From: Candidatus Omnitrophota bacterium
Lineage (GTDB): Bacteria > Omnitrophota > Gorgyraeia > Zapsychrales > Zapsychraceae
Direction of reading: 5' to 3'
DNA length: 64,000 nucleotides
NCBI GenBank assembly: GCA_023247445.1
Contig: JAHFGL010000003.1
Coordinates: 14,128 to 78,127 of the forward strand
Shown here piece by piece: positions 866 to 63,392 of the stretch (position 1 is its first letter; each line of letters starts with the position of its first letter). The notes beneath the pieces were generated by a model. It saw only the letters and a list, made by a program, of their open reading frames with translations. It ran no database searches and was not told the origin of the DNA. Made by a program: the position numbers and the translations under genes.

Positions 866-1270
866 TTGCAAGAAAGGAGGATAGTGATGCCTACGTTTAA
901 AGATTTATGGATTTGGAAAGAATCTCATCAATTAATGCTTGAGATCCACGAGTTAGCTAAGAAGTTACCTGCCGAAGAAAAATTCAGAAAACGAGATCAA
1001 ATAGAAAGATCATCTTCTTCCATCGCTGATAATATTGCCGAAGGTTACGCGGCGTATTATTACAATGATAAGATAAAAACTTTCTACATTGCGCGTAAAG
1101 AAGTAGCAGAGACTCAAAATCACATTGAGGCTTTGGTAGGAAAGAATTATTTGGATAGAAAACAAGCTGATCTTTGGATTAATCAATATAATCGAATAAT
1201 TGCTGGTATTAATGGGTTAGTTGCTTATATTCGCGATAAAAGTCGAAGTGAAGCGCAAAAGAAAAGGTAA
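866..1270 (+). CDS. four-helix-bundle protein of the 23S rRNA intervening-sequence protein family
   Basis: 134 aa; KESHQL..EIHELAKKLP...SSSIADNIAEGY pattern typical of the TIGR02436-type IVS proteins; RBS aaggagg upstream. Confidence 0.75.
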   Translation: MQERRIVMPTFKDLWIWKESHQLMLEIHELAKKLPAEEKFRKRDQIERSSSSIADNIAEGYAAYYYNDKIKTFYIARKEVAETQNHIEALVGKNYLDRKQADLWINQYNRIIAGINGLVAYIRDKSRSEAQKKR

Positions 1271-1445: not shown

Positions 1446-1586
1446 CGTCATTCTGAGCGATAGCGCACTGACTTTTCCATATTTATATTTAGATGAAGTC
1501 AGTACGTACCAACTTCATCTAAAACTATTAAGGAAAGTTGGTGCGAAGAATCTCCTGAGATCCTTCGGCTTTGCCTCAGGATGACG
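1446..1586 (+). mobile_element. MITE-like palindromic element, copy 1 (TIR + X hairpin + Y palindrome + TIR)
   Basis: cgtcattctgagcg ... cctcaggatgacg terminal inverted repeats; internal hairpin gtactgactt...aagtcagtac; palindrome ctcctgagatccttcg; near-identical copies at 25718, 39752 and 45686. Confidence 0.7.
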
Positions 1587-1613
1587 AAAAATAAGAATTA
1601 ATATATTAAGGCA

Positions 1614-11188: not shown

Positions 11189-11197
11189 GGAGAATTT

Positions 11198-19990: not shown

Positions 19991-20418
19991 GGCTTTCTTC
20001 GGATTAATATCATTCCAAATTTATTTACAAACAAAGGTTCAGCATTTAATTCTTTAATTTTTTCAAGGGCCTGAAGATCGTTTTTACAGACTAAAAGAAT
20101 GAATTCATGATTTGTATTGTTGTAGTCAAGCACCGTGGGCGCCAAAATAAATTGAGCCTGAGAAAATAGTTTGTTTGATTCATCATCATTGGTGTCGCTA
20201 TAATAGCCCAAGAGGTTAATCTTTTTGGTAATGTTTTCTAATCCTAGGAATTTGCCCCCGATGACTTGATGCTTTAGATATTTTTTAAATGTTTTAATGC
20301 GGTTGACCTCGGGGATAAAGACAATAACATTAAAAATAATAATGGCCAGGAAGGAGACGATAAGAATTCTCTGGGGCAAAGATTTTGGCCAATTTATTTT
20401 AAATGAGGGCAACGTCAT
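19987..20418 (-). CDS. small single-TM protein; paralog of 23408-23869
   Basis: 143 aa; shares SQAQFILAPTVLDY / LQAQYFLAPTILEL with the 153-aa protein; 4-nt overlap with the downstream gene. Confidence 0.45.
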   Translation of the reverse strand: MTLPSFKINWPKSLPQRILIVSFLAIIIFNVIVFIPEVNRIKTFKKYLKHQVIGGKFLGLENITKKINLLGYYSDTNDDESNKLFSQAQFILAPTVLDYNNTNHEFILLVCKNDLQALEKIKELNAEPLFVNKFGMILIRRKP

Positions 20419-23411
20419 GGATTTATTTGCGGATTTGGTTTGGTGGCTAGTAGGGTGTTCGCCACATCAAAATTCTTTAAAACTTTTAGATTATATTTTG
20501 CCAAAACAAAGAAATCTTGGAGCCAGTCTTTACTTTCAGGTAAATGGCTCTTCGGGGTTGTTAGATAATAATAATCAAATATTCCATTGGGTCCTTGGCG
20601 GTTAACCTGTTTTAGCCATGTCAGATGATATTTTTCGCGGTAGAAATTAATACTTGGTTCAAAAAGCCAGTTGATCCCAAGGCTCACAGAATTTTCATTT
20701 AAGTTCTTCGTTTTGGGCGCATCTTGCATAATAAATTTTACGGCGTCTTTGGTTGACGCATCGAACTGCCATTCATAAAAGTATTTGATGTTAGCACACC
20801 CAAGAAAGTGGACGAAATAAATTGTTGTTAAAGCATAGAAAAAAGTTTGGGCGGATAATCTAAGGGCTTTCTGAGGAATCGATTGGGCTACTCCTATCAA
20901 GATGACCACAACCATCATAAAAAGAAAAACAAAATAAAGGGCTGTTCTTCCCATAACAAACTTTGTCCCTAAAATTTTCCATTGAAGGAAGATTAAGGAT
21001 GCGCAAAGAAATAGGATTGTTAGGATTCCCATTAAGAATTTATCAGTTGATGAGAACGGTTTTTTCATTATCAGTAGTTGCGCTAGATGGGCTACGCTAA
21101 GAGTTAAAATAGATATGATCAGAAATTTAATGATTAAAATAATATTTAGTCCATCGATAGCTTTTGCGTAAAGGGTGCTATCAATTAAACTTGTTACAGT
21201 GTCCGTCCAGAATCCTTTGTCCCCGCCATAATAAAGTTCATGATAAGTTAATAATTTTTGTAGCGGGACAATGTAAAGAGCCCCCACCACAATTGAACTT
21301 AAGATAATAGAAGGAAAGAGGTTTTTTAGTAGACGTTTAAATATTTCTTTTTCGCGAAATGATTGCAAAAGTTCAAAGCCAAATAGAAACATGATGATAG
21401 CTAGATGAATATGGAGAAAGGCGAGGTTAGATAAAGTAGCCAGAACTAATAACCAAGAGCAAAGGATTAAATTTTTTCTGTAAAGAAGAATGTCATTTGT
21501 CATCAGGATTTTAAAAAAATAATATAAACCCAAAGCCAGAAATCCTAGGCCCAACGCATACCCTCGGGCGCAGGAAAATAAATCTAGCATATAAGGATTG
21601 CACGTCAGCAAAAGAAGTCCTGCGATAAGACTTGGTCCACGTAGAACGATCGAACAAATTTTATAAGCAGCAAACAGAAAAAGCGCATGACCGATCAAAG
21701 CCGGAATTCTTATCGCAAATTCTGACAATCCAAAACAATTGACTGAAATTTTAATAAGTAAACTATTGAGCAGATGGTTGTTTGATGGGTGCGGCTGACT
21801 AAAGGTTAATATTTGAAGAAATGAGGCCGAGGCATGACGCAGATATGTTAACGCTTCATCATGGGTGATCGATATGTTGTAAGCACGGATGAGCGTATAA
21901 ATAAATAATCCCGCCATGATGAGAAAGCAGATCCAGTGAGTAATTCTATTTCTGTCATCCTGAGCGTAGCGAAGGATCTCAGGATTCTTACGTGGCTTGA
22001 GATTTTTTGCCTCGCTCTTGGCAGGCTCAGAATGTTGGGGTGATAACTTTGTTGTTTGGTCTGACCAATAACAAAAAAATGATAGAAAGAGAATGGAGGG
22101 CAAAAGCTGCAGGTAAAGGCGCTCCAGTGACATTGACAGCCACCAATGGATATCGATATTGGTGTTGACCAGATAGATAAAGATTAGGATCGCGATGTAA
22201 GTAATGATGGAGAAGCTAATAATTTTATTTTCTTTATAAAATAATTTTGGAAATTTTAGGATGCCCAACAAAATAACCAATAACCAAATAAAGCTCCATC
22301 GTTTATCAATGATCTCGTTGAATACTGTTTTTTGAATGAGCAGAAATTTTTGGGCCTGTGTAATGTTTAGCTGAACTGCTTTTAAGCTGGGAAGAATATC
22401 TTCGTTGGGCGGCGCCAGGAATACTTTGAAGATGATCGTTGGCAATGCGGCAACGATTAATCCTATCAACATAAAGCGAATCAGGCTCCAACTTGTTTTC
22501 TTGCTTATCGTTTTATCAAATATTAGATAAAGTGTCGTGACGCTTGCCAAGATCCCCGTCATTACCATGCCTTCATTCTTGATGAAGGACAAAAATCCCA
22601 GGAATAGTCCATAAAGAATAGCCACGCGGTGATCTTTTAAATGCATCATGATGATCATTGTGACAAATGCGGCCAAAAGATAATACGCTAAGACAATATC
22701 GGCATATTGGGCCGTCGACCAAAAAATGAAATAAGGATGAGATAAAAGTAATAAGGAGGCAAAAATTCCAGCGGGCTTTAAATTAAGATGCTTTAAGGCC
22801 GCATAGACTAAAAGACAGGCGCTGACCGTAAATAAAAAAGACGTTATAAGCGGAATTGGAAAAAGATTGTTGGCGAAAAAGGAATAAATCCAAACATTAA
22901 CAAATGGTAAGAAAAGTGGGTAGTCGGGATGAGTATGCCAGTTTAGGCCTGATAAAATATCTTGCCAGGGCGTTTGGCTAAAGAGGAGAAACTTGGTTTT
23001 TAAATTCCACATCGCCCAGGCGTCCCATTCGCCGTAGGGATGTTTTTGGATAAGGAATAAGATTATTCCAGACAAGATAAGCCAGCAACAAGCAATTAGA
23101 ATATCTAATGGTTTAAGATTTTTTATCGATTTTTTAAATTGGTCAACGAGTGATGAGGAGCGCAACGACGAGAAATTAAGATAGATTAATAGAATTAAGA
23201 AAAGAAGATTGGCCGTAACAATGGCCAACGCATTAAATTGACGCAGGAATAAGAAAGAAAAGAATGTAATAAATGAGGAGAATCCTAATCCAAGGCCAAG
23301 GGCGAGTAAGAGATGAAGGCTTAATGAAATTGGTTTTGTATTTTTTAATAAAAAAGAAATGGCGAGGAATCCAAGGCAAAAAGAAATAAGGTAGGGGAAA
23401 AAATGGATCAT
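20415..23411 (-). CDS. large polytopic membrane protein: N-terminal module like 18485-19990, an RPE/MITE-encoded linker, and a C-terminal GT-C (PMT/ArnT-like) glycosyltransferase module
   Basis: 998 aa; C-half has ISITHDEALTYLRHA and NNHLLNSLL first-loop motifs typical of GT39/GT83; linker ...HSEPAKSEAKNLKPRKNPEILRYAQDD is encoded by the repeat at 21954-22035. Confidence 0.55.
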   Translation of the reverse strand: MIHFFPYLISFCLGFLAISFLLKNTKPISLSLHLLLALGLGLGFSSFITFFSFLFLRQFNALAIVTANLLFLILLIYLNFSSLRSSSLVDQFKKSIKNLKPLDILIACCWLILSGIILFLIQKHPYGEWDAWAMWNLKTKFLLFSQTPWQDILSGLNWHTHPDYPLFLPFVNVWIYSFFANNLFPIPLITSFLFTVSACLLVYAALKHLNLKPAGIFASLLLLSHPYFIFWSTAQYADIVLAYYLLAAFVTMIIMMHLKDHRVAILYGLFLGFLSFIKNEGMVMTGILASVTTLYLIFDKTISKKTSWSLIRFMLIGLIVAALPTIIFKVFLAPPNEDILPSLKAVQLNITQAQKFLLIQKTVFNEIIDKRWSFIWLLVILLGILKFPKLFYKENKIISFSIITYIAILIFIYLVNTNIDIHWWLSMSLERLYLQLLPSILFLSFFCYWSDQTTKLSPQHSEPAKSEAKNLKPRKNPEILRYAQDDRNRITHWICFLIMAGLFIYTLIRAYNISITHDEALTYLRHASASFLQILTFSQPHPSNNHLLNSLLIKISVNCFGLSEFAIRIPALIGHALFLFAAYKICSIVLRGPSLIAGLLLLTCNPYMLDLFSCARGYALGLGFLALGLYYFFKILMTNDILLYRKNLILCSWLLVLATLSNLAFLHIHLAIIMFLFGFELLQSFREKEIFKRLLKNLFPSIILSSIVVGALYIVPLQKLLTYHELYYGGDKGFWTDTVTSLIDSTLYAKAIDGLNIILIIKFLIISILTLSVAHLAQLLIMKKPFSSTDKFLMGILTILFLCASLIFLQWKILGTKFVMGRTALYFVFLFMMVVVILIGVAQSIPQKALRLSAQTFFYALTTIYFVHFLGCANIKYFYEWQFDASTKDAVKFIMQDAPKTKNLNENSVSLGINWLFEPSINFYREKYHLTWLKQVNRQGPNGIFDYYYLTTPKSHLPESKDWLQDFFVLAKYNLKVLKNFDVANTLLATKPNPQINP
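21954..22035 (-). mobile_element. MITE-like element, copy 2 (short, degenerate), translated in-frame within the 998-aa ORF
   Basis: gtcatcctgagcgtagcgaaggatctcagg...gcaggctcagaatg; minus-strand translation RYAQDD from the TIR. Confidence 0.55.
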
Positions 23412-23869: not shown

Positions 23870-23997
23870 AATTACCCGCCGCGCATCTAATTTGAAGAGA
23901 AGTAAAACTAAAAATTAGGGCTTTCTTAAATTTATCTTAGTCAGTATAATATAGCCCGTTTAGAGACATTATTTTGTTTAGACAACAGCATTAAAAT

Positions 23998-24122: not shown

Positions 24123-24139
24123 AAAAAGAGGAGAAGAAG

Positions 24140-25156
24140 TTGGTTCATGTCGGGATTATCGGTTGTGGTCATTGGGGGCCCAACCACGTTCGTATTTTTT
24201 CACAGCTCTTAAATTCTAAGGCCTTGATGTGCGCTGATTTTGATGAAGGCCGGCTTAAAACGATAAAAAGTTTATTTCCTCAGATTGAGACAACCACAGA
24301 TTATAAGAAGATTTTAGCGAATAAAGAGATCCATGCGGTCTGCATCGCGACTCCAACCAATACACATTATTCGATAGCCAAAGAAGCCTTGGAACATGAC
24401 AAACATGTCTTGTGTGAAAAGCCTCTTGCGTTAACTTCCTCCGAATGTGAAGAGCTCAAAAATCTGGCCCGTGACAAAAATCGGCTGCTTATGGTTGGAC
24501 ATGTTTTTCTTTTTAATAAAGGAATTTTGTGGCTTAAGGAATATATTCAGTCAGGGGAGTTGGGGCATATTCATTATGCGTATGCTACAAGAACTAATCT
24601 GGGGCCGTTTCGTTATGATGTTAATGCGCTTTGGGATTTGGCGCCGCATGATATTTCAATCTTTAATTTTTTGTTTAATAGTGCGCCGGTAAATGTCTCG
24701 GCCCGCGGACAAAAATGTTTGGGGAATTCGCAGGAAGATTTGGCCTTTGCCACGTTAGAGTATCCGGGGAATTGTATGGCGAACGTCCATGTCAGCTGGC
24801 TTGATCCTAAAAAGGTTCGACAGATTACAATCGTTGGTGATAAGAAAATGGTGGTTTGGGATGATTTGGATAATCTCGGGCCCATTCAGCTTTATGATAA
24901 ACATGTCGAGAAAACGTCAACCTTCTATGCCACGTATGGTGAATTTCAGTTATTGTCTAAAGAAGGAAATATTACGATTCCCAAAATAGGATTTAATGAG
25001 CCCCTTAAAGCGCAGGCTGAATATTTTATTAATTGTATTGAGCAAAATAAAAATCCTGATGTCTGTGACGCGCAAAAAGGATTGGACGTCACAAAAACTT
25101 TGTGTGCGATTCAGCAATCTATGGATCGTAAAGGTGAATGCGTGGTGGTTAAGTGA
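24140..25156 (+). CDS. Gfo/Idh/MocA family NAD-dependent oxidoreductase (WbpB-like UDP-sugar 3-dehydrogenase candidate)
   Basis: VGIIGCGHWGPNHVR Rossmann motif and EKPLALTSSECEEL block; TTG start after aggag. Confidence 0.75.
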   Translation: MVHVGIIGCGHWGPNHVRIFSQLLNSKALMCADFDEGRLKTIKSLFPQIETTTDYKKILANKEIHAVCIATPTNTHYSIAKEALEHDKHVLCEKPLALTSSECEELKNLARDKNRLLMVGHVFLFNKGILWLKEYIQSGELGHIHYAYATRTNLGPFRYDVNALWDLAPHDISIFNFLFNSAPVNVSARGQKCLGNSQEDLAFATLEYPGNCMANVHVSWLDPKKVRQITIVGDKKMVVWDDLDNLGPIQLYDKHVEKTSTFYATYGEFQLLSKEGNITIPKIGFNEPLKAQAEYFINCIEQNKNPDVCDAQKGLDVTKTLCAIQQSMDRKGECVVVK

Positions 25157-25710
25157 GTTATTTTAAACATGAAAAAGCGATGGTCCATCCTGACGCCAAA
25201 ATTGGGGAAGGAACGCGTTGTTGGGCCAACACCAATGTTCAAGCAGGCGCTGTCATTGGTCAAGGATGTAATATCTGCGATGGCAGCTTTGTTGAAAAGG
25301 GGGCGGTCGTTGGCCATCATGTGACGATCAAACACCATGTCTCTATTTTTGATGGGGTGACTATTGAAGATGATGTTTTTATTGGATCCAATATTGCTTT
25401 TATCAATGATCGTTATCCGCGCAGCAATCGTAAAGATGCATGGACGCTTGAGAAGACGTTGGTTAAAAAGGGAGCAACCATTGGAACAAATGCCGTTATC
25501 TTATGTGGCTTAACGATTGGTCAATATGCGCTTGTGGCCGCAGGAGCGGTTGTTGTTAAGAATGTTTTAGATCACGAGGTTGTGGCTGGAAATCCTGCAC
25601 GAGCGAAAGGTTATGCCTGCCACTGCGGACGTCCGCTTGATGCCAAATATAAATGTGCGAAATGTAAACGGCAATATCGTAAGAAAAAATTTGGATTGGA
25701 AGAAAAATAA
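25153..25710 (+). CDS. hexapeptide-repeat (left-handed beta-helix) acetyltransferase, WbpD/PglD-like, with a C-terminal Cys-rich tail
   Basis: repeated [LIV]G.....G hexads (IGSNIAFINDRY, IGTNAVILCGLTIGQYALVAAGAVV); tail CHCGRPLDAKYKCAKCKRQY; 4-nt overlap with the upstream gene. Confidence 0.7.
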   Translation: MSYFKHEKAMVHPDAKIGEGTRCWANTNVQAGAVIGQGCNICDGSFVEKGAVVGHHVTIKHHVSIFDGVTIEDDVFIGSNIAFINDRYPRSNRKDAWTLEKTLVKKGATIGTNAVILCGLTIGQYALVAAGAVVVKNVLDHEVVAGNPARAKGYACHCGRPLDAKYKCAKCKRQYRKKKFGLEEK

Positions 25711-25717
25711 ATTTATT

Positions 25718-25890
25718 GTCATTCTTCGTTCCGCAAAGCGGAACGAAGAATCTCAGGACACTTAAAACTTATGGGATCCTTCGCATCAACTTTCCTTTAA
25801 TATTTTAGAGGAAGTTGGTACGTACTGACTTCATCTAAATATAAATTATGGAAAAGTCAGTACGCTACGCTCCATTAGACGAGAGCGTCG
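25718..25890 (-). mobile_element. MITE-like element, copy 3 (opposite orientation to copy 1)
   Basis: gtcattcttcgttccgcaaagcggaacgaagaatctcagg...gggatccttcgc...ggtacgtactgacttcatctaaatataaattatggaaaagtcagtacgctacgctc. Confidence 0.7.
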
Positions 25891-37757: not shown

Positions 37758-38972
37758 TTGATTAAGATCATGAATCAATTTTTAAAAACGAAGAAAACGC
37801 AAATCATTGGTCCTGATAATAAACCGATTACGCTTCGAGGTGTCAATTTCGGCGGGTGGCTGATGATGGAGGCCTATATTCTTTATGCGCCCAATAATCC
37901 GGAACGAGGGTTCAAGGAAGATTTTGCCAAAAAGTTAGGGCCCGCCGCGCTTAAATCATTTGAGAAAAATTTTCGCGCCAATTTTGTTTGTGAAGATGAT
38001 TTTAAGAATATTGCCCAGCTTGGATTTAATTGTGTCCGCGTGCCGTTTAACCATCGCCTTGTTGAATCGACACCGTATCATTATTCTAAGGAAGGCCTAA
38101 AAGTTTTGGATGATGTGCTCGCGTGGGCCAAGAAATATAAAGTTTATGTTATCTTGGATCTTCACGGCGCAGCTGGGTGTCAAAATCACGATTGGCACTC
38201 TGATAGTTTTGGCAAAGCCGAGCTTTGGACGAACAAAGTTTATCAAAAACGAACCTTAGCCCTTTGGAAATTTATTGCTGACCGTTATAAAAATGAACCA
38301 TATTTGGCTGGATATGATTTACTCAACGAATCGATACTTACTGACACAAAGCTTTTGAATAGATTTTATAAGGAGATTATTGGCGGCATTCGCCACGTTG
38401 ATAAAAATCATATTTTATTTATCGAGGGAAACCGTTGGGCGCAAGATATTGAGTGCTTGGAAGAATTTGATGATGATAATTATGCCTTGAGTATTCATAA
38501 TTATGAGCCGATTGATTTTACATTTAACTTTGTGCCGCAGTTGTCGTATCCACTCAAATCGAAACAGGGGAGTTGGGATAAAAAGACAACGTATCAACAT
38601 TTATTAAAGCATAAAAAGTTATCAGATGCGCGCGGCGTGCCGATTTTCGTTGGAGAATTTGGCATTAATGCCCGTAATAGTTTTTATGGTGAAGATAAAT
38701 GGCTCGATGACACACTTCGTTGTTATAAAGAACTTGGTTTTCATTGGACTTATTGGACTTATAAAGCGATTAAGAATTTTGTTTTTCCCGATGGGGTTTA
38801 CAGTTATCTTAGCAATCCGCCGTGGGTCAATCGTGTTGGCCCCAAGATGGGTTGGGATACGTTCGCCAGCCACTGGCCTACACGACAAAAAGAGATGATT
38901 GAATCATGGCAGACCAAGAATTTTGAACCAAATACAGCCGTACTTAAAACATTACAAAAATATGCTCGATAA
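37758..38972 (+). CDS. glycoside hydrolase family 5
   Basis: GYDLLNES (NEP-like acid/base region), HNYEP, and FVGEFG nucleophile motif. Confidence 0.55.
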   Translation: MIKIMNQFLKTKKTQIIGPDNKPITLRGVNFGGWLMMEAYILYAPNNPERGFKEDFAKKLGPAALKSFEKNFRANFVCEDDFKNIAQLGFNCVRVPFNHRLVESTPYHYSKEGLKVLDDVLAWAKKYKVYVILDLHGAAGCQNHDWHSDSFGKAELWTNKVYQKRTLALWKFIADRYKNEPYLAGYDLLNESILTDTKLLNRFYKEIIGGIRHVDKNHILFIEGNRWAQDIECLEEFDDDNYALSIHNYEPIDFTFNFVPQLSYPLKSKQGSWDKKTTYQHLLKHKKLSDARGVPIFVGEFGINARNSFYGEDKWLDDTLRCYKELGFHWTYWTYKAIKNFVFPDGVYSYLSNPPWVNRVGPKMGWDTFASHWPTRQKEMIESWQTKNFEPNTAVLKTLQKYAR

Positions 38973-39762
38973 AATTACCAGCCTCACTAATCCAAAAGTT
39001 AAAGAACTCGTTAAACTGCGCGAAGCGGCTCAGCGAAAGAAGTCGGGGGTCATTGTCGTTGAAGGATATCGTGAAATTGAGCGTGCTATTGAAGCGAAGG
39101 TGAACTTTAAGGAATTTTATATCTGTAAATATTTTGTTAAAACGTTAGCGCAAAAAGAAACGCTTAAGAAAATCATGGCGCTTAATGTCCCGATTTATGA
39201 GACAAGCAGCGAAGTGTATGAAAAAATTTCATATGGTGACCGCAATGAAGGATTGATGGCGATTGCTCAGCCAAAGTATTCATCATTCTTCGATTTGCCA
39301 TCGAAAGACGATTTGTTTATTCTGGTTATTGAGCAGGTTGAGAAGCCTGGAAATTTGGGCGCGATCCTGCGTACTGCTGATGGCGTGGGCGTTGATGGCA
39401 TCATCGTCTGTGATGCCAAAACGGATATTTATAATCCAAATGTGATTCGTTCAAGTTTGGGAACAATTTTTTCAACTAAAGTGGTTGTTAGTTCTGTTGC
39501 CCCAACTTTTGATTTCTTAAAGTCGAAGGGAGTCAAGATTTGTGCGACGAGTCCTGATGCCGATTTTATTTATTCCAAGGCTGATTTAAAAGCGCCGGTT
39601 GCCATTGTCGTTGGCAGTGAACAGGAGGGCTTAAGTCGATTTTGGTTAAGTAAAGCGGATTTAAAGGTAAGAATTCCAATGCGTGGGAAAGCTGATTCGC
39701 TTAATGTCTCGACATCAACGGCAATTTTGCTTTATGAAGCGCTGAGACAATCGTCATCCTGA
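38962..39762 (+). CDS. TrmH/SpoU family RNA methyltransferase; its stop codon lies in the MITE TIR
   Basis: LGAILRTADGVGVDGII and VVGSEQEGLS SPOUT motifs; last codons caa tcg tca tcc tga are the MITE TIR cgtcatcctga. Confidence 0.7.
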   Translation: MLDKITSLTNPKVKELVKLREAAQRKKSGVIVVEGYREIERAIEAKVNFKEFYICKYFVKTLAQKETLKKIMALNVPIYETSSEVYEKISYGDRNEGLMAIAQPKYSSFFDLPSKDDLFILVIEQVEKPGNLGAILRTADGVGVDGIIVCDAKTDIYNPNVIRSSLGTIFSTKVVVSSVAPTFDFLKSKGVKICATSPDADFIYSKADLKAPVAIVVGSEQEGLSRFWLSKADLKVRIPMRGKADSLNVSTSTAILLYEALRQSSS

Positions 39763-39900
39763 AGGAGCAAAGCGTACTGACTTTTCCATAATTTATATTT
39801 AGATGAAGTCAGTACGTACCAACTTCCTCTAAAATATTAAAGGACAGTTGGTGCGACTGAAGGATCTCTTAAGAGATCCTTCGCTTACGCTCAGGATGAC
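39752..39900 (+). mobile_element. MITE-like element, copy 4 (full length, same orientation as copy 1)
   Basis: cgtcatcctgaaggagcaaagcgtactgacttttccataatttatatttagatgaagtcagtacgtacc...gaaggatctcttaagagatccttcgcttacgctcaggatgacg. Confidence 0.75.
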
Positions 39901-39929
39901 GAGAAATCATGCTATTTCTCGAAATTAAA

Positions 39930-40646
39930 ATGAAAACAAAAATTCGTCTACAAGTATTCTTGTCGCATAATGGTGTTTGTTCACGGCGAAAGGCCTTTGA
40001 TTTAATTCAAAGTGGCCAAGTCGCGGTTAATGGACGGATTGTTAAAGAACCATCAACGGCCATTGATGCTGATCGTGATGAAATTTACGTTGATGGCAGC
40101 GAAATAAAGTCTAAGGCCTTTGATTATATTTTATTAAATAAGCCTAAAGGCGTTACCACAACTAAGGCTGATCAGTTTGCCGAGAAGACAGTTCTGGAAT
40201 TATTGCCCAAAGAATTTCAGCATTTAGTCCCGGTTGGACGTTTGGATAAAGATACAGAAGGATTGCTCTTATTAACTAATGATGGTGATGTGGCGTATAA
40301 ACTAACGCATCCAAAATTTAATGTCGGCAAAACATATTTCGTTAGAGTACGATGGGAGTTAACAGAGGCTAAACGAAAAAAATTAGAGCAAGGTATTATC
40401 TTAGAAGGAACGAAAACATCGCCGGCAAAAGTTGAAGAGGTCAAATATACTAATGATCAGACGGAGTTTAACATCACGATTCATGAAGGCCGTAAGCGTC
40501 AGGTAAGACTTATGTGCGCCAAGGTTGGCCTGCCAGTTATTTATTTAAGACGTTTAACTCAAGGGCCGCTTGAGTTGGGAGATTTACAACTAGGGAAATA
40601 TCGAGCATTAACCAAGGATGAAATTGAAAGGCTTCGCAGTTTGTAA
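39930..40646 (+). CDS. pseudouridine synthase, RsuA/RluB family (S4 domain plus catalytic domain)
   Basis: S4 region RLQVFLSHNGVCSRRKAFDLIQSGQVAVNG; catalytic GRLDKDTEGLLLLTNDG. Confidence 0.8.
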   Translation: MKTKIRLQVFLSHNGVCSRRKAFDLIQSGQVAVNGRIVKEPSTAIDADRDEIYVDGSEIKSKAFDYILLNKPKGVTTTKADQFAEKTVLELLPKEFQHLVPVGRLDKDTEGLLLLTNDGDVAYKLTHPKFNVGKTYFVRVRWELTEAKRKKLEQGIILEGTKTSPAKVEEVKYTNDQTEFNITIHEGRKRQVRLMCAKVGLPVIYLRRLTQGPLELGDLQLGKYRALTKDEIERLRSL

Positions 40647-40655: not shown

Positions 40656-42602
40656 ATGATTACGATAAATAATTTAACGATGGGATTTACCAACCGTACG
40701 CTCTTTAAGGATGTTACTTTTAGCATTTTTCCCAATGAAAAAATTGGTTTAACTGGACCCAACGGCGCGGGAAAGACAACACTCTTCTCTATTATATTAG
40801 GCGATATGCAGCCGATTTCGGGAAGTGTCGTTGTACAAAAGAATATCAGCATTGGATATTTACCGCAGGAGTCACGATTTGATTCGACGAAAACGGTGCT
40901 AGAAGAAATTACCGAGGGCGACGCGCGCATTCGAACGCTCATGGATGAGAAACGTAAACTCGAGGATGATAATAAAGCAGATTCGAATCGCTACGGCGAC
41001 GTTTTGCATGAGCTGGAACAACTGGGGATTTATGATATTGAACATAAGGCCGAAAAGATTTTGATGGGACTTGGATTTAAGACGACCGATTTTAATCGGC
41101 CGATTTCAAATTTAAGCGGCGGCTGGCAGATGCGCGCGCTTTTGGCGAAGCTTTTAACATATTCTTATGATTTACTTTTGCTCGATGAGCCTACAAACTA
41201 TTTGGATTTAAACGCGACGCTTTGGCTAAAAGGTTTTTTAGCCAACTATCCCGGCGCGTTTGTTCTTATCTCTCATGACCGCGTCTTTTTAAATGATGTC
41301 ACCAACTATACGATTATCTTAGAGCGCAATGGAATGACGAAGGTCAAAGGAAACTATGAAGAATATGAAATCCAAAAAGGTTTGACTGTTAAACATTTGG
41401 AACGTCAGCAAAAGGTTGTTGAGAAAAAGCGTGAACAACTGGAAAGGTTTGCTGAACGTTTTCATGCGCAGCCTAACAAAGCCTCAGCGGTGCGCAACAA
41501 ACGTAAACAATTGGAAAAGTTGGAAGAGATTGATCTGCCGCAACAGCAAAGAAGTATGGAGGCCTTTGAGTTTTCTAATATCCAACAAAGTGGATATGTG
41601 GTTGTCCATATGGAGAAGGTCAGTAAGAGTTATGTAGAGAAGAAAGTTTATCAGGATTTAGATTTTGAGATTATCCGTGGACAAAAGGTCTGTTTGGTTG
41701 GACCAAACGGCGCAGGAAAGTCTACTCTTCTTAAAATGCTCGCTGGTGCCATTGCCGCCGATAGCGGGACAATTAAATATGGCCACAAAGTTGATTTGGG
41801 ATATTTTTCACAATCACGAATGGATGTTTTAAGTCCGGAGAAAAATCCGCTGGAAGAAGTTTATTCGGCTGCCGAAGGCAAGGGCGTTCAAACGACACAA
41901 ATCCGTAGTCTCTTGGGACTTTTTAATTTTCATGGTGATGATGTATTTAAGCCGGTTAAGGTTCTTTCGGGAGGAGAAAAAAGCCGTTTGATCTTGGCCA
42001 AACTTTTGATTAATCCACCGAACTTTATGCTTTTAGACGAACCTACAACTCATCTTGATCTTGACGGCGTTCGCGCGCTAACGAGTGCTTTTCAATCTTT
42101 TGAAGGAACGATTTGTTTTATCAGTCACGATCTTTACTTTATTCGAGAGTTGGCGGACACAATTGTTGAAGTCGATAGTGGTCATATTAAAGTTTATTCA
42201 GGTGGACTGGAATATTATTTAGAGAAGCGAGAAGAAAAGGACGCCGAGCTTAAAGAACAAAAACGTCAGGAAAAGTTGGGGCAGCAAGAACAAAAGAAAC
42301 AAGAGCAGAAAAAACAAGAGAAAGACAATTCTCACCTGAGTCAATTACATAAACAGCATAACGAGGCGCTCAAACGCATCGGGCAGATTAAAAACGAAAT
42401 TAAAAGTTTGGAAGATGAGCAAAAAGAAATCGAGACGGAAAGTTATGTTAAGGCCCGCGCTTTGGCCAAGATGTATGAATCCAAAGACGGTGAGAAGATT
42501 AAGGAATATGGCAAGCGGCTCAAAGATATTCAAGCCCGCCAGCGCGAAATTGAGACGACGATAAAGAATTTAAGAGAAGAGCGCGACAGAATTAGTAAGT
42601 GA
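40656..42602 (+). CDS. ABC-F family ATPase (two ABC domains plus C-terminal coiled coil; Uup/YheS-like)
   Basis: two Walker A sites (GPNGAGKTT, GPNGAGKST), two signatures (LSGGWQMR, LSGGEKSR), K/E-rich coiled-coil tail. Confidence 0.85.
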   Translation: MITINNLTMGFTNRTLFKDVTFSIFPNEKIGLTGPNGAGKTTLFSIILGDMQPISGSVVVQKNISIGYLPQESRFDSTKTVLEEITEGDARIRTLMDEKRKLEDDNKADSNRYGDVLHELEQLGIYDIEHKAEKILMGLGFKTTDFNRPISNLSGGWQMRALLAKLLTYSYDLLLLDEPTNYLDLNATLWLKGFLANYPGAFVLISHDRVFLNDVTNYTIILERNGMTKVKGNYEEYEIQKGLTVKHLERQQKVVEKKREQLERFAERFHAQPNKASAVRNKRKQLEKLEEIDLPQQQRSMEAFEFSNIQQSGYVVVHMEKVSKSYVEKKVYQDLDFEIIRGQKVCLVGPNGAGKSTLLKMLAGAIAADSGTIKYGHKVDLGYFSQSRMDVLSPEKNPLEEVYSAAEGKGVQTTQIRSLLGLFNFHGDDVFKPVKVLSGGEKSRLILAKLLINPPNFMLLDEPTTHLDLDGVRALTSAFQSFEGTICFISHDLYFIRELADTIVEVDSGHIKVYSGGLEYYLEKREEKDAELKEQKRQEKLGQQEQKKQEQKKQEKDNSHLSQLHKQHNEALKRIGQIKNEIKSLEDEQKEIETESYVKARALAKMYESKDGEKIKEYGKRLKDIQARQREIETTIKNLREERDRISK

Positions 42603-42612: not shown

Positions 42613-42678
42613 GTCATCCTGAGGAACGCAGTGACGAAGGATCTCTTAAGAGATCCTTCGCTGGCGCTCAGGATTACG
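42613..42678 (+). mobile_element. MITE-like element, copy 5 (short form: TIR + Y palindrome + TIR)
   Basis: gtcatcctgaggaacgcagtgacgaaggatctcttaagagatccttcgctggcgctcaggattacg. Confidence 0.65.
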
Positions 42679-42679
42679 G

Positions 42680-42955
42680 ATGGTTTACAAATTAAGGAAT
42701 ATGCGACTAAAAATAGATTTACACGACATTTATTCCAGCAGCCGTGAGCTTGAGCGATCCTTAACGGATATCATGCAAGAGGCGCAAGATAAAAAAGCAG
42801 ATTTAATTGAGATCATTCCTGGTAAAGGTTCTGGTCAGCTCAAAAAATATGTCCTGCGATTTCTAGAAAAAGGGTACAAGAATGTTTATCATCGCATCGA
42901 GAAGGATGATAAAAATTGGGGCCGCATCTTTGTTCACTTTCGGTGGTCAAAGTAA
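42680..42955 (+). CDS. Smr-domain protein
   Basis: LKIDLHD...AQDKKADLIEIIPGKGSGQLKKYVLRFL matches the Smr DLHG...IIHGKG.G pattern. Confidence 0.55.
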   Translation: MVYKLRNMRLKIDLHDIYSSSRELERSLTDIMQEAQDKKADLIEIIPGKGSGQLKKYVLRFLEKGYKNVYHRIEKDDKNWGRIFVHFRWSK

Positions 42956-44997: not shown

Positions 44998-47900
44998 ATG
45001 TATATTTACAAGAAAAACCAAAACTCATGTGGTAGCCGCCGGCTTATTTCAACCGTCTTACTGATAGCCTTTGGATTGACCTCATTTTTGCCTCCCAATC
45101 TTAGCTGGGCGCAGGTTGTGCCCTTAACAGGACTCAATCTTCCTATTCCGGGAACGGTCATCAATTTAAGTCCCGCCTTTATTCCCGCGCATGTCACCGG
45201 CATTGCCATTCATCCCGACGATCCATTTAAATTCGATTTTATTATTGATACCGGTGATGATCATTTAGAAGGTGAGGCGTTTAAACAGGAATCGATGAAG
45301 CTGATTAAATATTTTATGGCCTCCCTAACGGTGCCGGAGAATCAGATGTGGGTTAATCTTTCGCCATATGAAAAGAATCGTATCATTGCGGATGGACTGG
45401 GGCAGACGGAGATGGGCCGCGACATGCTTGGCCAAGATTATATTTTGAAACAATTAACGGCATCTTTAATGTCACCTGAGAATGAATGGGGACAAAAGTT
45501 TTGGGATCGTGTTCATAAAGAAGTTAAAGAAAAATATGGCAACATTGATATTCCAACGGATACGTTTAACAAAATTTGGATTCTGCCGGATAAGGCGTCG
45601 GTTTATGTTCATGACAATCGCGCGTTTGTTGTTGAGAATCATTTAAAGGTGATGTTGGAGGAAGATTACGTGGCGCTTTCTAATAGTCATCCTGAAGGAG
45701 CGAATGCGACTGAAGGATCTCCGAAGAGATCCTTCGCATCAACTTTCCTTAATGGTTTTGAGAAGAAGTTGGTACGTACTGACTTCCTCCAAATTGAATT
45801 AAGGAAAAGTCAGTACGCTGCGCTCAGGATGACGGAGCCAATCAAAGAAATTTTAAAAGAAATTCTCCTTCCCGAAATCGAGAAGGAAGTTAACAACGGC
45901 AAGAATTTTGCCCAGCTGCGACAGATTTTTTATTCAATGATTTTAGCCACGTGGTATAAACAGAATTTGAAAAAGAGCTTGTTCACCAAAAATTACGCCA
46001 ATCAAAACAAGATTGAAGGAATCGACCTTCAAGATAAAAAAATCAGTGAGAAGATTTACAACCAATATTTAGAAGCCTTCCAAAAAGGTGTCTCCAATTT
46101 AATTAAAGAAGAGTATGATCCGCAAACTCAGGAAGTTATCCCGCGCAAATATTTCTCGGGAGGAGTTCAGGGAGTCGAAGACGCGGCGATCTTGACAAGT
46201 CTGCCTTCGAGTTGGATGGAAGCTCAAATAAATCGCGATCATGCGATGGTCACCGCCGGCATCGATCCTCTCGGCCCTCAAGCTTCCGATGAGGCGATGG
46301 TGACTTATGCCGAAGGAACAGATCAACAATACCTCAAGAGGCTGGATAAGATGTTTCGGGCAATTGCTGGTTCCGCCGATGTGGATGGTTCGGCTTATAA
46401 AGATTTTCAAAGAGGAGTTTCTCAATTAATAACAGATGGCGTGATCACGGGTTTAGTTGCAAGAAGGCAAGTTTGGGATTTTATGAAATCTGTGGCCCAA
46501 GGTGTTGCGTCAGGCGATCGGACAGAATTGCAACAACTGAGATTCCTCTTGAATTCTCCCGAGGAGATTACGTTATCTCATTTTATGAGAATAAGGATTC
46601 GAAAAGAAAAAACAAGTAAACGAATGATTAGAGTTGTTCAAAGAGTCCCTGGAATGCTTGCTCATTCCCAAGCGTTGTTGCAGGACATTGTGGGTAAAAT
46701 AAAACGTAATGAGCCGGTTAAAATATGTTTTGTCTGTAATATGAATGTTCACCGCAGTGCCGTCGCCCATGTCTTAGTAATGGATCAAGCTCAAAAATTA
46801 GGAAGGACCAATGTTGAGATTGTCTCTGGCGGGACATTTGATTCAAATGAACATTTAAATTCTAAATTAAGATCTGGATTCAAGAAAATTTTAGAGGCCA
46901 GGGGTGTTGACAGCGACATCATTAATCGATTTCGTACCAGAGATGTAACTAAAGAAGATTTAGAAGATTCTCAGTTAATTGTGATTGCAGAACCAATGAA
47001 CCTAGAGAGGTTGTCAGAGTTTGAAAATGAGGTTCCAGGGTTGTATGAGAAGATGATATTTTTTACATCGATTAATCCCGTCGTAGATGCCCAGCATCCG
47101 GATCATGTGATGCCAGATCCTTATGATTCAAGTAAGATATCAGCAGAAGGGTTGGTTGATTTAATAGAACAAGAAATAATTCCGCGGTTGTTTCCAACCG
47201 ACCCCGCCCTCCAGCCTTTGGCTGGAGAGGCCTCGGCATCCCGTAAGCGGGATGACCGGGCGATGTTGACTAAAACGGAACAAACTCCTCAAGCTCTGGT
47301 TGAAGATTTAAAACGCGCTGCTGCCGAGGATCCTGGCAATATTGTGGATGTTTTGTATGACCGTGGTTTTAGAAAACCGGATGAACCATTCAACGTGTAT
47401 CTTATGATAAAGAATCATAAAGGTCCGATCTTGGATATTAGAACTGGTGAGGAGTTGCAAAATTGGCCAGCCGAGCAGTTAGTCGGCCGTCAGTGGAGAA
47501 GGGCCGACGTTTATATTAGAAAAGATGACCCAAGAGGTTTGGGAGTTTTGGTGATCGATTCTGATAATATTTTGACCGCGCGCGAAAGTCATCAATTTAG
47601 AGAAAGAAATTGGCGGGATTTGGCTCAAAAAAGAGGACTGATTGTTTATACCGGAGTCAATGCCATCAATCGTGAGTTGATAACCGCGCATCGAATTTTA
47701 AAAGAAGACGGCACGATTGTTGAAAAGGAATATGGTGATTCACCGCCATTCGACTTAAAGGTCACAAAAGAGTCAATCCTGATACGTATTGGCGATGGTG
47801 TTTTTTTTATCGAGTTGGATGAGTCGATGCTGACATACTCTGAAGACCAATGGGATAAAGTCAATCAAACGTACGAGAGCCTTCGCAAATTAGCCCAGAG

Positions 47901-49578
47901 TATTAAAGATGATCTTGATGCAAAGTTAGGGCCTGGATTTGTTGAGGAGTTAACGGGGTTAGTTGATCGATTACCCGAAAATGAAACTCAGGCCAGAGAA
48001 AGGTTAGGCGAAGATGACGCAATGAAATTGTTGGAGGACACCAACCGATTAGCCAATCTTGCTTTTGTGACAATCGATCAAATTTTAACATCATCTCATG
48101 AAAAGATTACATCATTAGGTCTTGATAATATTCTTCAGTCTGATTTAGAAAGTCCAAGGTATCCGATAAAAGAAGGATTTCGCAGCTACGACATAATTCG
48201 TGATTTTACTGAAAAATTGGGCAAGGTTAAAGGGGCTATGGATGGAATGAGTTCTCGGAATCTTAGTCGAGATACAGTTTATGGAGAATTTAATAGTTGT
48301 AAGCTTTTCTCGTCAATGGCTTTAAAAAGAATTGTAGCATTTGTCAACTTATTGGATCATGTTGTTGATCTACAAAGCGAGTCCTTTGAGAAATTTAAAG
48401 AGGAGATAAAATCAAGTACCGTATCTTTTAGAGAATCAAAAAGTTTACCCGAGTATATTTATCGATATTTTTTAATCCCGTATCAAGAAGCTTTGGCAGA
48501 GCGAGAAGCCATTGCTGAACCTATTCCCGATGAGGCGCTGTTGGCTCACCCGGAAGATTTGGTTGGGGGAGAAATAAATTTAAGATATTTGCGACGGATT
48601 CAAAAAATTGTTAATTCCAGCAAGGCTGATACAAAAAAGATCGCCATGTATGTGGGGGCTGGGGCGGATATCAGTGCTGCGCTTCTAGCGATTGATGCGA
48701 CGGACTATATTTTTATCGATCAAATTCCATTTGATACGGATAAACGAAAGGTCAGCGCCAAGACATTGGCTCGCGACATGGAAATTTATTTCCATGACAA
48801 GATGGGCAAAGGATATGGCAATTATTTGGCGATGAAGTCGGTTGGTCGGATTCGGCCATTTTTTATAAAAGAATTAGAATTGTTAGGAATTGATCCTAAG
48901 GATGTTTCAATTAAAAAAGATAAAAATAATCCAAATGTTTTTAGAATTAGTTTTGAGTATAAAGGCCAGAGGAGAACGGTTACCTATGTTGGTAATGCGG
49001 ATGCGACAAGGCCAGCCAAATTCGCCTCGCTTATTAAACGTTTGGGCCGAGCTGATTTTCTAATGATTAGAGCCGGCAATTACAGTGAGCGCAATCCAAA
49101 ACCATTATTAACGCGGACTTTTGTTATGAAACATTTAAAACCATCAGGACATCTTATTGTAGATTCCCTCGATGGGTTGACGGCCAAGGATGGACTACGT
49201 GATTTAGTTGAGCAGAAGCATTTGCGTGATGCCGTTTTAACTAGACTGGAACGCGATGGGGCGGGGTTAGGGTATGGTGATCGTTACGCCCCGCAATCAT
49301 ATATTTATATAAACAATCTCGATGAGGCGCTAGTGACGGATAAAGCAGTGACTAGTGAAGTTCCTGGTGGGATTGATTTTAATCCTGCGAATATGAATTT
49401 CAATTCAAACGGCGATAAGATTCAAATCAACTTACCGATGGCAGATCCCGCGATGCTGGGAGTAGAATCACCCGTCCGTGGTTATCAACCGGTCATTATT
49501 GAAATCACTCCGATAACAAATTTTCCGCTATTGCTCGGACTTAAAGATGAGCACGTGACGCAGATTTCTTATAACTAA
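44998..49578 (+). CDS. giant secreted multidomain protein (1526 aa) with an embedded LMW protein-tyrosine-phosphatase-like domain and an in-frame MITE
   Basis: signal peptide ...FLPPNLSWA-QV; CX5R(S) P-loop VKICFVCNMNVHRSAVAH plus PDPYDS Asp loop at about aa 570-730; possible Rossmann-like MYVGAGADISAALLAIDATDYIFIDQ near the C-terminus. Confidence 0.65.
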   Translation: MYIYKKNQNSCGSRRLISTVLLIAFGLTSFLPPNLSWAQVVPLTGLNLPIPGTVINLSPAFIPAHVTGIAIHPDDPFKFDFIIDTGDDHLEGEAFKQESMKLIKYFMASLTVPENQMWVNLSPYEKNRIIADGLGQTEMGRDMLGQDYILKQLTASLMSPENEWGQKFWDRVHKEVKEKYGNIDIPTDTFNKIWILPDKASVYVHDNRAFVVENHLKVMLEEDYVALSNSHPEGANATEGSPKRSFASTFLNGFEKKLVRTDFLQIELRKSQYAALRMTEPIKEILKEILLPEIEKEVNNGKNFAQLRQIFYSMILATWYKQNLKKSLFTKNYANQNKIEGIDLQDKKISEKIYNQYLEAFQKGVSNLIKEEYDPQTQEVIPRKYFSGGVQGVEDAAILTSLPSSWMEAQINRDHAMVTAGIDPLGPQASDEAMVTYAEGTDQQYLKRLDKMFRAIAGSADVDGSAYKDFQRGVSQLITDGVITGLVARRQVWDFMKSVAQGVASGDRTELQQLRFLLNSPEEITLSHFMRIRIRKEKTSKRMIRVVQRVPGMLAHSQALLQDIVGKIKRNEPVKICFVCNMNVHRSAVAHVLVMDQAQKLGRTNVEIVSGGTFDSNEHLNSKLRSGFKKILEARGVDSDIINRFRTRDVTKEDLEDSQLIVIAEPMNLERLSEFENEVPGLYEKMIFFTSINPVVDAQHPDHVMPDPYDSSKISAEGLVDLIEQEIIPRLFPTDPALQPLAGEASASRKRDDRAMLTKTEQTPQALVEDLKRAAAEDPGNIVDVLYDRGFRKPDEPFNVYLMIKNHKGPILDIRTGEELQNWPAEQLVGRQWRRADVYIRKDDPRGLGVLVIDSDNILTARESHQFRERNWRDLAQKRGLIVYTGVNAINRELITAHRILKEDGTIVEKEYGDSPPFDLKVTKESILIRIGDGVFFIELDESMLTYSEDQWDKVNQTYESLRKLAQSIKDDLDAKLGPGFVEELTGLVDRLPENETQARERLGEDDAMKLLEDTNRLANLAFVTIDQILTSSHEKITSLGLDNILQSDLESPRYPIKEGFRSYDIIRDFTEKLGKVKGAMDGMSSRNLSRDTVYGEFNSCKLFSSMALKRIVAFVNLLDHVVDLQSESFEKFKEEIKSSTVSFRESKSLPEYIYRYFLIPYQEALAEREAIAEPIPDEALLAHPEDLVGGEINLRYLRRIQKIVNSSKADTKKIAMYVGAGADISAALLAIDATDYIFIDQIPFDTDKRKVSAKTLARDMEIYFHDKMGKGYGNYLAMKSVGRIRPFFIKELELLGIDPKDVSIKKDKNNPNVFRISFEYKGQRRTVTYVGNADATRPAKFASLIKRLGRADFLMIRAGNYSERNPKPLLTRTFVMKHLKPSGHLIVDSLDGLTAKDGLRDLVEQKHLRDAVLTRLERDGAGLGYGDRYAPQSYIYINNLDEALVTDKAVTSEVPGGIDFNPANMNFNSNGDKIQINLPMADPAMLGVESPVRGYQPVIIEITPITNFPLLLGLKDEHVTQISYN
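45686..45834 (-). mobile_element. MITE-like element, copy 6, full length and translated in-frame inside the giant ORF
   Basis: gtcatcctgaaggagcgaatgcgactgaaggatctccgaagagatccttcgc...ggtacgtactgacttcctccaaattgaattaaggaaaagtcagtacgctgcgctcaggatgacg encodes SHPEGANATEGSPKRSFASTFLNGFEKKLVRTDFLQIELRKSQYAALRMTE. Confidence 0.7.
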
Positions 49579-49601: not shown

Positions 49602-49681
49602 GTCATCCTGAGGAACGAAGTGACGAAGGATCTCCGATTATTTTAAGTACTTTGAGATTCTTCGCTTCGCTCAGAATGACG
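49602..49681 (+). mobile_element. MITE-like element, copy 7 (short form)
   Basis: gtcatcctgaggaacgaagtgacgaaggatctccgatta...gagattcttcgcttcgctcagaatgacg. Confidence 0.65.
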
Positions 49682-49694
49682 TAAACGTTTTAAA

Positions 49695-50213
49695 CTAGAT
49701 CATTAAAAGTGCAGCGTTGGCGCGAAGATAGTTACGCACATCTTCCGTAAAAGGCAAAAAGACCTTATAAAACAATTTGCCTTTTTGTTGCGCAACCTTT
49801 TTAATCTTTGTTTGGAATTGGATTTTGGATTCTTTAGGCGAGTGGCCTTCGTTTTGAAAGCTGATGGTAACCTCTGCGATTGTTCCTTCAGCAATAAAGG
49901 AAGGAATGTCGCAGGAAAGGCCGATGAGATTAATATCATGAGTGCGGCTGATAATAAAATGATCGTTGACCTTTAAATGGATCGGCCATTCATAGTGAAA
50001 ACGGCGATAATGACGTTTCTCAGAGAAAACATTTTGATTGTTTTGCACTCCTAAACGATAGCGTGTCCAATCTTGACCATATTTTTTGATCCAGTCTGTT
50101 GCCGCTGTGGCAAAACCAACTTCGCGACCTAATTTTTCACTTTCAAGCCATTTATGTTTACGAATTTCAGCTAACGCTAATTCATCCTGAAGAAATGAGT
50201 AAGTGGTATTCAT
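49695..50213 (-). CDS. PilZ-like domain protein with an unrecognised N-terminal domain
   Basis: RHYRRF (RxxxR) then DINLIGLSCDIP...GTIAEVTISF resembles a degenerate PilZ c-di-GMP-binding fold. Confidence 0.4.
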   Translation of the reverse strand: MNTTYSFLQDELALAEIRKHKWLESEKLGREVGFATAATDWIKKYGQDWTRYRLGVQNNQNVFSEKRHYRRFHYEWPIHLKVNDHFIISRTHDINLIGLSCDIPSFIAEGTIAEVTISFQNEGHSPKESKIQFQTKIKKVAQQKGKLFYKVFLPFTEDVRNYLRANAALLMI

Positions 50214-62576: not shown

Positions 62577-62613
62577 TTATTATTTAAGCGTTTGAGGCAG
62601 AAGGAGGAGTGAA

Positions 62614-63051: not shown

Positions 63052-63080
63052 AATTGTGGTTTAAATGAAAGGGGTTTGCC

Positions 63081-63365: not shown

Positions 63366-63392
63366 ATTAGCTTTTGTCGTGGAGGATATTCT

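Follow-up and report, generated by a model that had tools for sequence, protein, structure and literature searches.

The longest open reading frame (ORF) in a 64,000-nucleotide stretch of contig JAHFGL010000003.1, from a Candidatus Omnitrophota bacterium, contains a complete 149-nt palindromic repeat that is read through in frame (the whole stretch is called the window below, and coordinates without a contig label refer to it). The repeat, copy E, is one of seven copies in the window, comprising four full-length copies, two short copies, and one degenerate short copy. The probable explanation is that a selfish, nonautonomous palindromic repeat replaced a permissive linker between two helices of the encoded protein and survives because the reading frame stayed open. 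Copy E would have entered this linker, which belongs to the N-terminal domain of an Omnitrophota protein with multiple paralogs, either by landing there or by recombination, and the native linker, about 21 amino acids (aa) in the modal homolog, would have been lost with the insertion. With the frame kept open, the gene would still code for a protein of full length, and about 50 of its residues, encoded by the repeat, would serve as a flexible linker with a near-neutral effect on function. Persistence would then be a matter of survivorship, as the linker tolerates almost any sequence.

Anatomy and reading frame of the intragenic copy

The features of the host gene and of copy E are as follows.

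44998..49578, + strand: host gene, 1526 aa, defined by ORF and translation, with a signal-peptide-like N terminus
45670..45870, + strand: linker of the N-terminal domain, bounded by the anchors ...LKVMLEEDY and PEIEKEVN; 67 aa here, modal length 38 aa in homologs
45686..45834, + strand: copy E, full-length composite palindromic repeat, codons 230 to 279, in frame
45686..45695, + strand: left terminal inverted repeat, GTCATCCTGA, encoding (S)HPE
45712..45735, + strand: X hairpin, GAAGGATCTC-CGAA-GAGATCCTTC, with a perfect 10-bp stem
45740..45816, + strand: Y module, a nested double hairpin, CAACTTTCC...GGAAGTTGG and GTACTGACTT...AAGTCAGTAC
45824..45833, + strand: right terminal inverted repeat, TCAGGATGAC, encoding LRMT

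Copy E reads GTCATCCTGAAGG...CTCAGGATGACG and is abutted on its upstream side by the host sequence ...GCGCTTTCTAAT. Its first nucleotide is the second base of codon 230 and its last closes codon 279; the translation, SHPEGANATEGSPKRSFASTFLNGFEKKLVRTDFLQIELRKSQYAALRMTE, contains no stop codon, and the host protein runs on in the same frame downstream. The predicted tryptic peptides over the repeat-encoded part are SFASTFLNGFEK, TDFLQIELR, SQYAALR, and MTEPIK. The two terminal repeats pair at 10 of 10 positions, and with the G that follows the right one the bottom strand reads CGTCATCC. Within the Y module, the core GAAGTTGGTACGTACTGACTTC (45765 to 45786) is the same in all four full-length copies. 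The single-strand RNA fold of copy E reaches -68.7 kcal/mol (z = -8.9 versus shuffles) and the DNA fold -38.7 kcal/mol (z = -8.5), so that the palindromic structure is far beyond chance. [quoted passage not shown] Sequence and ORF translation agree with its coordinates, peptide, and stop-free in-frame reading, and alignment and fold bear out the presence of both terminal repeats and the X and Y modules inside the ORF.

Probable replacement of the native linker

Linker length was taken as the number of residues between the two strictly conserved anchors and was compared across 95 homologs of the N-terminal domain. The repeat segment is absent from all 95, each of which has a variable linker in its place (26 to 79 aa long, and exactly 38 aa in 47 of the 95), as the first-pass proposal of an insertion relative to homologs had anticipated. 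Once the element is subtracted, the linker of the host protein comes to 17 aa (VALSN plus EPIKEILKEILL), which is 9 aa below the shortest homolog, and compared with the modal linker a stretch matching ...VGSTKHGLGNITKDDIEVVSGV... (about 21 aa) is missing. The residues after the element again match the family (...PIKEILKEILLPEIEKEVNNGKNF...). Because the 17 aa that are left are fewer than in any homolog, the native linker appears to have been replaced by the repeat, which leaves the linker about 29 aa longer than in the modal homolog. The earlier statement that the element adds about 50 residues is therefore right as a count of repeat-encoded residues and inexact as a simple addition.

An AlphaFold2 model of residues 1 to 411, built with 37 homologs, had a mean predicted local distance difference test score (pLDDT) of 71 and a predicted template modeling score of 0.70. 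The repeat-encoded segment is its main internal region of low confidence (pLDDT below 50 for aa 234 to 261 and about 52 to 57 for aa 262 to 279), and it sits between a confidently modeled beta-hairpin plus helix (aa 221 to 230) and a confidently modeled helix (aa 280 to 300). The approximately 50 repeat-encoded residues are probably a flexible, looped-out linker that would be exposed at the surface. The surface loop envisaged in the first-pass annotation may correspond to this low-confidence linker between two confident helices.

The host gene and its protein family

After its signal-peptide-like start, the host protein has a conserved N-terminal domain of about 390 aa. A low-molecular-weight phosphotyrosine phosphatase (LMW-PTP) domain follows at aa 576 to 726, with its CX5RS motif intact (Pfam LMWPc, E = 2.3e-8), and the protein ends, by alignment, with the conserved C-terminal tail of its family (GGIDFNP...PVIINITP across the family, given as GGIDFNP...PVIIEITP for the host gene). 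With these three features the protein looks like an intact family member, and both flanks of the repeat are collinear with the family alignment, in line with the original description of an in-frame repeat in an intact gene. As judged from its sequence, the gene is apparently intact and its product probably secreted. The identical 1526-aa protein is on record twice, on a 149-kb NCBI contig and on a 33-kb ENA contig, which argues against an assembly artifact. In addition, positions 1 to 1668 of contig L022 (ENA assembly ERZ27280176) are 100% identical to window positions 62333 to 64000, with the element outside the overlap. The same strain is therefore present in at least two assembled samples.

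Relatives of the N-terminal domain (window 44998 to 46170) are numerous, with more than 2104 matches at about 50 to 58% identity, and the named ones belong to Candidatus Omnitrophota. No match to this domain was found in Pfam (in which only LMWPc matched the protein), in NCBIfam, or in a PDB fold search with the model (E <= 0.001). The cargo carried by the family varies widely and includes kinase, DnaJ, Macro, PGK, methyltransferase, WD40, and LMW-PTP domains. Contigs L015, L019, L020, and L021 contain relatives of the N-terminal domain and of the C-terminal tail region (window 49380 to 49578), and L021 has three family paralogs in tandem. The gene order Asp_decarbox, Pep_deformylase, Radical_SAM, LPG_synthase_TM, and NYN_YacP (window 11177 to 14367) also occurs in L020.

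Other palindromes in the same linker

The DNA of the linker was read in five paralogs from four assemblies other than that of the window, four of the five having been picked for odd linker peptides, and each linker was found to contain palindromic sequence that is read in frame. In L015, in-frame GTAGGGGCGGG...CCCCTAC hairpins, tagged with GTAG, lie right after (S/H)N codons both in the linker of P0112 (10766 to 10885) and in that of a second, unselected paralog (21114 to 21236). The linker of P0032 (L017, 865 to 993) contains GTAGGGGCGGGTTTAAAACCCGCCCGTAC, that of P0059 (L016, 3896 to 4132) contains three hairpins, and that of P0006 (L018, 1624 to 1770) contains a long imperfect palindrome. 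Including the window, palindromes of four types occupy this one linker in at least six members of the family, drawn from five assemblies. Folding energies are -0.26 to -0.40 kcal/mol per nt for four of the five paralog linkers (z = -3.7 to -5.7) and -0.29 kcal/mol per nt for the L017 linker, with its small hairpin (z = -1.8); the window linker has z = -6.6. Five ordinary linkers of 37 to 38 aa, taken as controls, have no excess structure (-0.17 to -0.20 kcal/mol per nt, z = -1.8 to +0.9). Across the 23-kb L015 locus, complete GTAGGGGC...CCCCTAC hairpins occur only in the two paralog linkers, and a few GTAGGGGC-like sites with one mismatch lie near or within the second paralog. In a biased sample of 11 family genes, useful in a qualitative way, six perfect hairpins of at least 9 bp were located in linkers and 12 elsewhere; three of the four P0112 hairpins inspected outside the linker were AT-rich chance inverted repeats.

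The linker between the two helices is a permissive site for repeats. A stronger proposal, that it is a genuine hot spot, is doubtful, if worth stating: unrelated palindromes (the composite of the CGTC type, repetitive extragenic palindromic [REP] sequences of the GTAG type, and others) would have been inserted repeatedly and kept in frame, perhaps guided by an SN-VG target motif, and would generate surface-loop diversity over thousands of secreted paralogs. Because four of the five linkers were picked for odd peptides, the palindromes show permissiveness and only suggest targeting.

A related alternative to survivorship is that the linker undergoes targeted or adaptive diversification, either as a landing site preferred for its target sequence (such as ...AAT followed by GT(A/T)GG..., encoding the conserved SN-VG) or through positive selection. 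The recurrence of palindromes in at least six members speaks for it, as do the start of three of them right after an (S/H)N codon, the palindrome in the unselected L015 paralog, the confinement of the complete L015 hairpins to two linkers, and the lack of such structure in control linkers. Against it stand, besides the selection of the sampled cases, the differing insertion points within the linkers of P0032, P0006, and P0059 and the fact that this is the most length-variable part of the domain, where purifying selection alone predicts surviving insertions. The window repeats themselves also argue otherwise, as no direct repeat common to both flanks, and hence no recognizable target-site duplication, was seen in any of the six copies inspected, and no common flank was found for the family. 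Targeted diversification is accordingly considered unlikely, and survival of a repeat in a tolerant linker is preferred.

The repeat family in the window

Besides copy E, six copies were located.

1446..1587, - strand: copy A, full-length, intergenic, 27 nt upstream of ORF 1614..3788; fold -57.6 kcal/mol
21954..22035, unstranded: copy G, degenerate short form, in frame in the 998-aa ORF 20415..23411 (- strand), peptide ...HSEPAKSEAKNLKPRKNPEILRYAQDD...
25719..25885, + strand: copy B, full-length with a degenerate left end, intergenic, 9 nt past the stop of ORF 25153..25710; fold -47 kcal/mol
39753..39902, - strand: copy C, full-length, ending 7 nt before ORF 39909..40646; fold -69.3 kcal/mol
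42613..42680, unstranded: copy D, short form (terminal repeats and X hairpin only), 11 nt past the stop of the ABC-F gene 40656..42602
49602..49682, unstranded: copy F, short form (terminal repeats and X hairpin only), 24 nt beyond the host-gene stop and 13 nt short of where the convergent ORF 49695..50213 ends

Copies A, B, and C align with copy E over its whole length, with about 81 to 85% identity of aligned bases, and an nhmmer profile made from the four full-length copies recovered each of them at E = 1e-44 to 1e-49. The single-strand folds of all four are far better than those of shuffles. Element lengths range from 68 to 167 bp, the terminal inverted repeats are 10 to 12 bp long, and no transposase gene lies inside. 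The element is a nested composite of an outer palindrome, the X hairpin, and a Y module of about 77 nt between the X hairpin and the right end. The ends of the outer palindrome read (C/T)GTC-ATCCTGAG, also written (C/T)GTCATCCTGAG, and the outer stem (ATCCTGAG / CTCAGGAT) comprises 8 bp that begin with an A-T pair immediately after the tag. Copies A and C have CGTC as the tag at both ends, and copies E and F have it at the right end; at the left end, copies F and G have TGTC, and copies E and D have AGTC or GGTC. Pairing between the tagged ends spans 45 nt in the short form and up to 125 nt in the full form, an interval that holds the X hairpin with or without the Y hairpins.

The Y module is not present in short copies D and F. 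In an activated-sludge contig (L001, 101 to 208) it occurs, with an identical 22-nt core, enclosed by another outer palindrome, one rich in GC, immediately downstream of a tRNA-like gene. Its lack in the short forms, together with this other setting, indicates that Y is an independent nested module.

Five of the seven window copies are intergenic, and four of these five overlap a stop codon or follow one within 24 nt; the exception, copy A, lies 176 nt past the upstream stop. The SpoU methylase ORF 38899..39762 takes its final codons and its TGA stop from one terminal repeat of copy C (39753 to 39762). Spacers just after or overlapping a stop codon are the usual placement of the family, as they are for REPs, bacterial interspersed mosaic elements (BIMEs), and bacterial MITEs.

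Among the approximately 50 ORFs of the window, which are otherwise of the housekeeping kind, none contained a transposase or a REP-associated tyrosine transposase (RAYT) domain or belonged to a parent insertion sequence (IS) with matching ends. A window-wide Rfam search at the gathering threshold matched only one tRNA, and the element alone gave no match at E <= 1. An exact scan for the Y core returned no match in 185,579 GTDB species genomes and one in metagenome contigs. Literature matches to the terminal-repeat sequence were limited to primers and unrelated sequences, and the 3.2-kb contig L022, which extends the window, holds no further copy.

Searching with the X hairpin alone brought up a short form, its ends and X hairpin nearly matching those of the window, in L003 (7127 to 7228), L006 (4396 to 4467), L007 (2611 to 2683), L008 (2409 to 2470), L009 (1986 to 2052), and L013 (593 to 660). 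This palindrome reads GTCATYCTGAG...CGAAGGATCTC-loop-GAGATCCTTCG...CTCAGGATGAC, and its hosts are labeled Omnitrophica, Oscillospiraceae, Oligoflexales, Acidobacteria, and Kerfeldbacteria, plus one uncultured bacterium. The short form is a noncoding repeat of about 60 to 70 bp that is near-identical across phyla. Peptides such as ...SLRMT and VILSEAKDL, derived from such repeats, are presumably common in hypothetical proteins of many environmental bacteria.

Is the repeat family adapted for translation?

The first-pass annotation took the stop-free reading of copy E as the hallmark of elements of the Rickettsia palindromic element (RPE) type, a family selected for translatability in which in-frame insertion into genes is characteristic and frequent, as in Rickettsia. 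In keeping with this, two of the seven window copies lie in frame within the two largest ORFs, the elements have the CGTC end tag that Di Nocera et al. describe on Rickettsia RPEs, and the frame used in copy E has only one or two stops in the other full-length copies. However, six-frame translation revealed no bias toward stop-free frames. In the three intergenic full-length copies, each of the six frames is interrupted by one or more stops, and only the genic copy E has an open frame. The mean number of stops per frame is 3.0 in copy A, 3.3 in copy B, 3.2 in copy C, and 2.3 in copy E, compared with 2.66 in composition-matched shuffles, in which the chance of a given frame being open is P = 0.06. 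When the 51-aa peptide was searched exhaustively with phmmer against 1.84 billion representative proteins, the host protein itself and one unrelated tandem-repeat protein were the only matches. Closed intergenic copies, a stop density like that of shuffles, and a singleton peptide mean that there is neither stop-codon depletion nor a recurrent peptide, and the repeat family has no sign of adaptation for translation. As most copies are also intergenic, with four of five at or directly past a stop codon, the RPE-type explanation is improbable, and the landing of an unadapted repeat in a permissive linker remains the better account.

The second insertion cited in support of the RPE type, copy G, is real and in frame in the 998-aa ORF 20415-23411 (...PEILRYAQDD...); it is a short degenerate form and not a full element. 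That ORF encodes a membrane protein with a weak PMT_2 match at aa 165 to 322, and copy G lies near its middle. As for a reading of the ORF as two genes bridged by copy G, comparison of its halves showed no similarity, and its homologs number only two, both distant and partial.

Compared with the other copies, copy E has a compensated +1/-1 frameshift pair that recodes 11 codons. It also has the substitution T105C, in place of which the shifted frame would read TAA; the change is required in the shifted frame only. The G75 insertion and C105, both private to copy E, can pair in a hairpin. That the private mutations opened the frame was ruled out, as the frame is open with all six Y-module changes or both indels reverted. 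The private changes may have come with a variant source copy or may have arisen later, under selection that favored an open frame.

The same changes bear on a possible RNA-level role, in which the structure of -69 kcal/mol would pause ribosomes or control mRNA stability within the coding region and the open frame would merely keep the gene. The palindrome is fully kept in the genic copy, G75 and T105C can pair, and there are known precedents for REPs and MITEs acting as RNA hairpins (PMC3733652). On the other hand, the element has no Rfam match even at the permissive cutoff, homologs lack structure at the same site, and a recent insertion explains the kept palindrome equally well, which makes such a role very improbable. 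Hardly any credence attaches to the idea that the ORF is a pseudogene or an assembly chimera, the repeat marking a dead gene or a misjoin, for although repeats are classic misassembly sites and there is no ortholog for comparison, both flanks are collinear with the family in one frame, the 1526 codons are open through an intact catalytic motif and the family tail, and the protein is identical in the NCBI and ENA records.

Several points nevertheless weigh against replacement of the linker by a passively surviving repeat. No ortholog or empty-site allele was present in the databases searched (the C-terminal 942 aa matched only themselves in 5.8e9 sequences), and the insertion with linker deletion is reconstructed from paralogs at 50 to 58% identity. 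The frame statistics come from seven copies in one 64-kb window, and translation and expression of the repeat-encoded residues are predictions from sequence. Finally, the palindrome of copy E is as stable as that of the best intergenic copy (-68.7 versus -69.3 kcal/mol). If the element were a purely neutral passenger in a disordered linker, some decay of the palindrome might be expected; its retention may mean that the insertion is recent, that the source copy was a variant, or that the structure is under selection.

Other repeats and duplications in the window

The window contains a second dispersed repeat family, which is AT rich with internal inverted symmetry and occupies three intergenic regions (10628 to 10785, 23991 to 24123, and 28272 to 28386; ...CCAAATACCAA... 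/ ...TTGGTATTTG...). Three tandem 30-bp units (AGGGTATTAGGTGATTTGGTGATTAGGGAC and variants) are located at 769 to 858, between ORF 14..766 and a gene for a 23S rRNA intervening-sequence protein (866..1270). A two-gene unit encoding a membrane protein of about 730 aa (YfhO-like in the first copy) and a TPR protein is duplicated in tandem (1614 to 4708 and 4713 to 7863) with about 70 to 73% nucleotide identity.

Significance and comparison with known systems

Rickettsia provides the best-known examples of in-frame selfish DNA within genes, and others, in scattered REP-rich genomes, were reported in a 2013 survey. The Omnitrophota genome literature examined contains no mention of interspersed or palindromic repeats or of MITEs, and the present case extends in-frame selfish repeats to this uncultured phylum. 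It also serves as a control, in that a repeat family without translational adaptation may still come to be translated after landing in a permissive linker. A linker that repeatedly hosts palindromes in a huge unannotated family could help in defining domain boundaries and in engineering, and the family offers a testable system for separating target preference from survivorship. On the practical side, such repeats make odd peptide segments and can fragment assemblies of large genes.

RPE-1 to RPE-10 (Ogata et al. 2000/2002, summarized in PMC10969869 and PMC3733652) occur as in-frame insertions in many genes unrelated to one another, and the conserved peptide that they encode recurs. Like them, copy E is a palindromic repeat of about 100 to 150 bp that is read in frame in a gene that stays intact, and it may lie in a fold-compatible region, to judge from AlphaFold2 pLDDT and linker variability. 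Rickettsia RPEs end in CGTC (PMC3733652), a tetranucleotide also present at ends of the window family. In contrast to RPEs, the window family has a unique peptide, mostly intergenic copies (one of four full-length copies is genic, plus one degenerate short copy), and no stop depletion, and its host belongs to the Omnitrophota rather than the Alphaproteobacteria.

Di Nocera, De Gregorio & Rocco (2013, PMC3733652) distinguished superfamilies of prokaryotic REPs by their GTAG or CGTC tags. CGTC-tagged REPs have stems of 8 to 9 bp that begin with A-T (PMC3733652). REPs are mostly located within 20 bp past ORFs and can supply stop codons, and REPs wholly inside genes, coding for 20 to 82 aa, are known from several phyla, with GTAG cases most numerous in Opitutus terrae, a bacterium of the Planctomycetes-Verrucomicrobia-Chlamydiae (PVC) group (PMC3733652). 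The window family resembles CGTC-tagged REPs in having CGTC or TGTC at most ends followed by the 8-bp, AT-first stem ATCCTGAG, in lying mostly within 24 nt past stops, with one copy supplying a stop, and in the occasional copy wholly inside an ORF. The GTAGGGGCGGG...CCCCTAC palindromes of the paralog linkers, being tagged with GTAG, resemble REPs of the other superfamily. A canonical REP, however, is 20 to 40 bp long with a 4- to 5-nt loop and an unpaired tag at one end, whereas here the tagged ends pair across 45 to 125 nt.

In-frame fusions of MITEs are known from intragenic enterobacterial repetitive intergenic consensus (ERIC) sequences, large BOX elements, and Anabaena MITEb/e (reviewed in PMC10969869). 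The window family differs from typical MITEs in having no recognizable target-site duplication and no parent IS or transposase with matching ends among the window ORFs. It shares with them a small size, terminal inverted repeats, no transposase coding, strong secondary structure, and occasional in-frame genic copies. BIMEs are enterobacterial REP arrays with defined linker motifs, and the likeness to them is one of architecture, namely, a modular mosaic with short forms without Y and, in L001, Y within a different outer palindrome. Taken together, the ends of the element appear to resemble those of the CGTC-tagged REP/RPE superfamily, and its architecture appears to be MITE- or BIME-like rather than that of a single REP or a simple head-to-head dimer.

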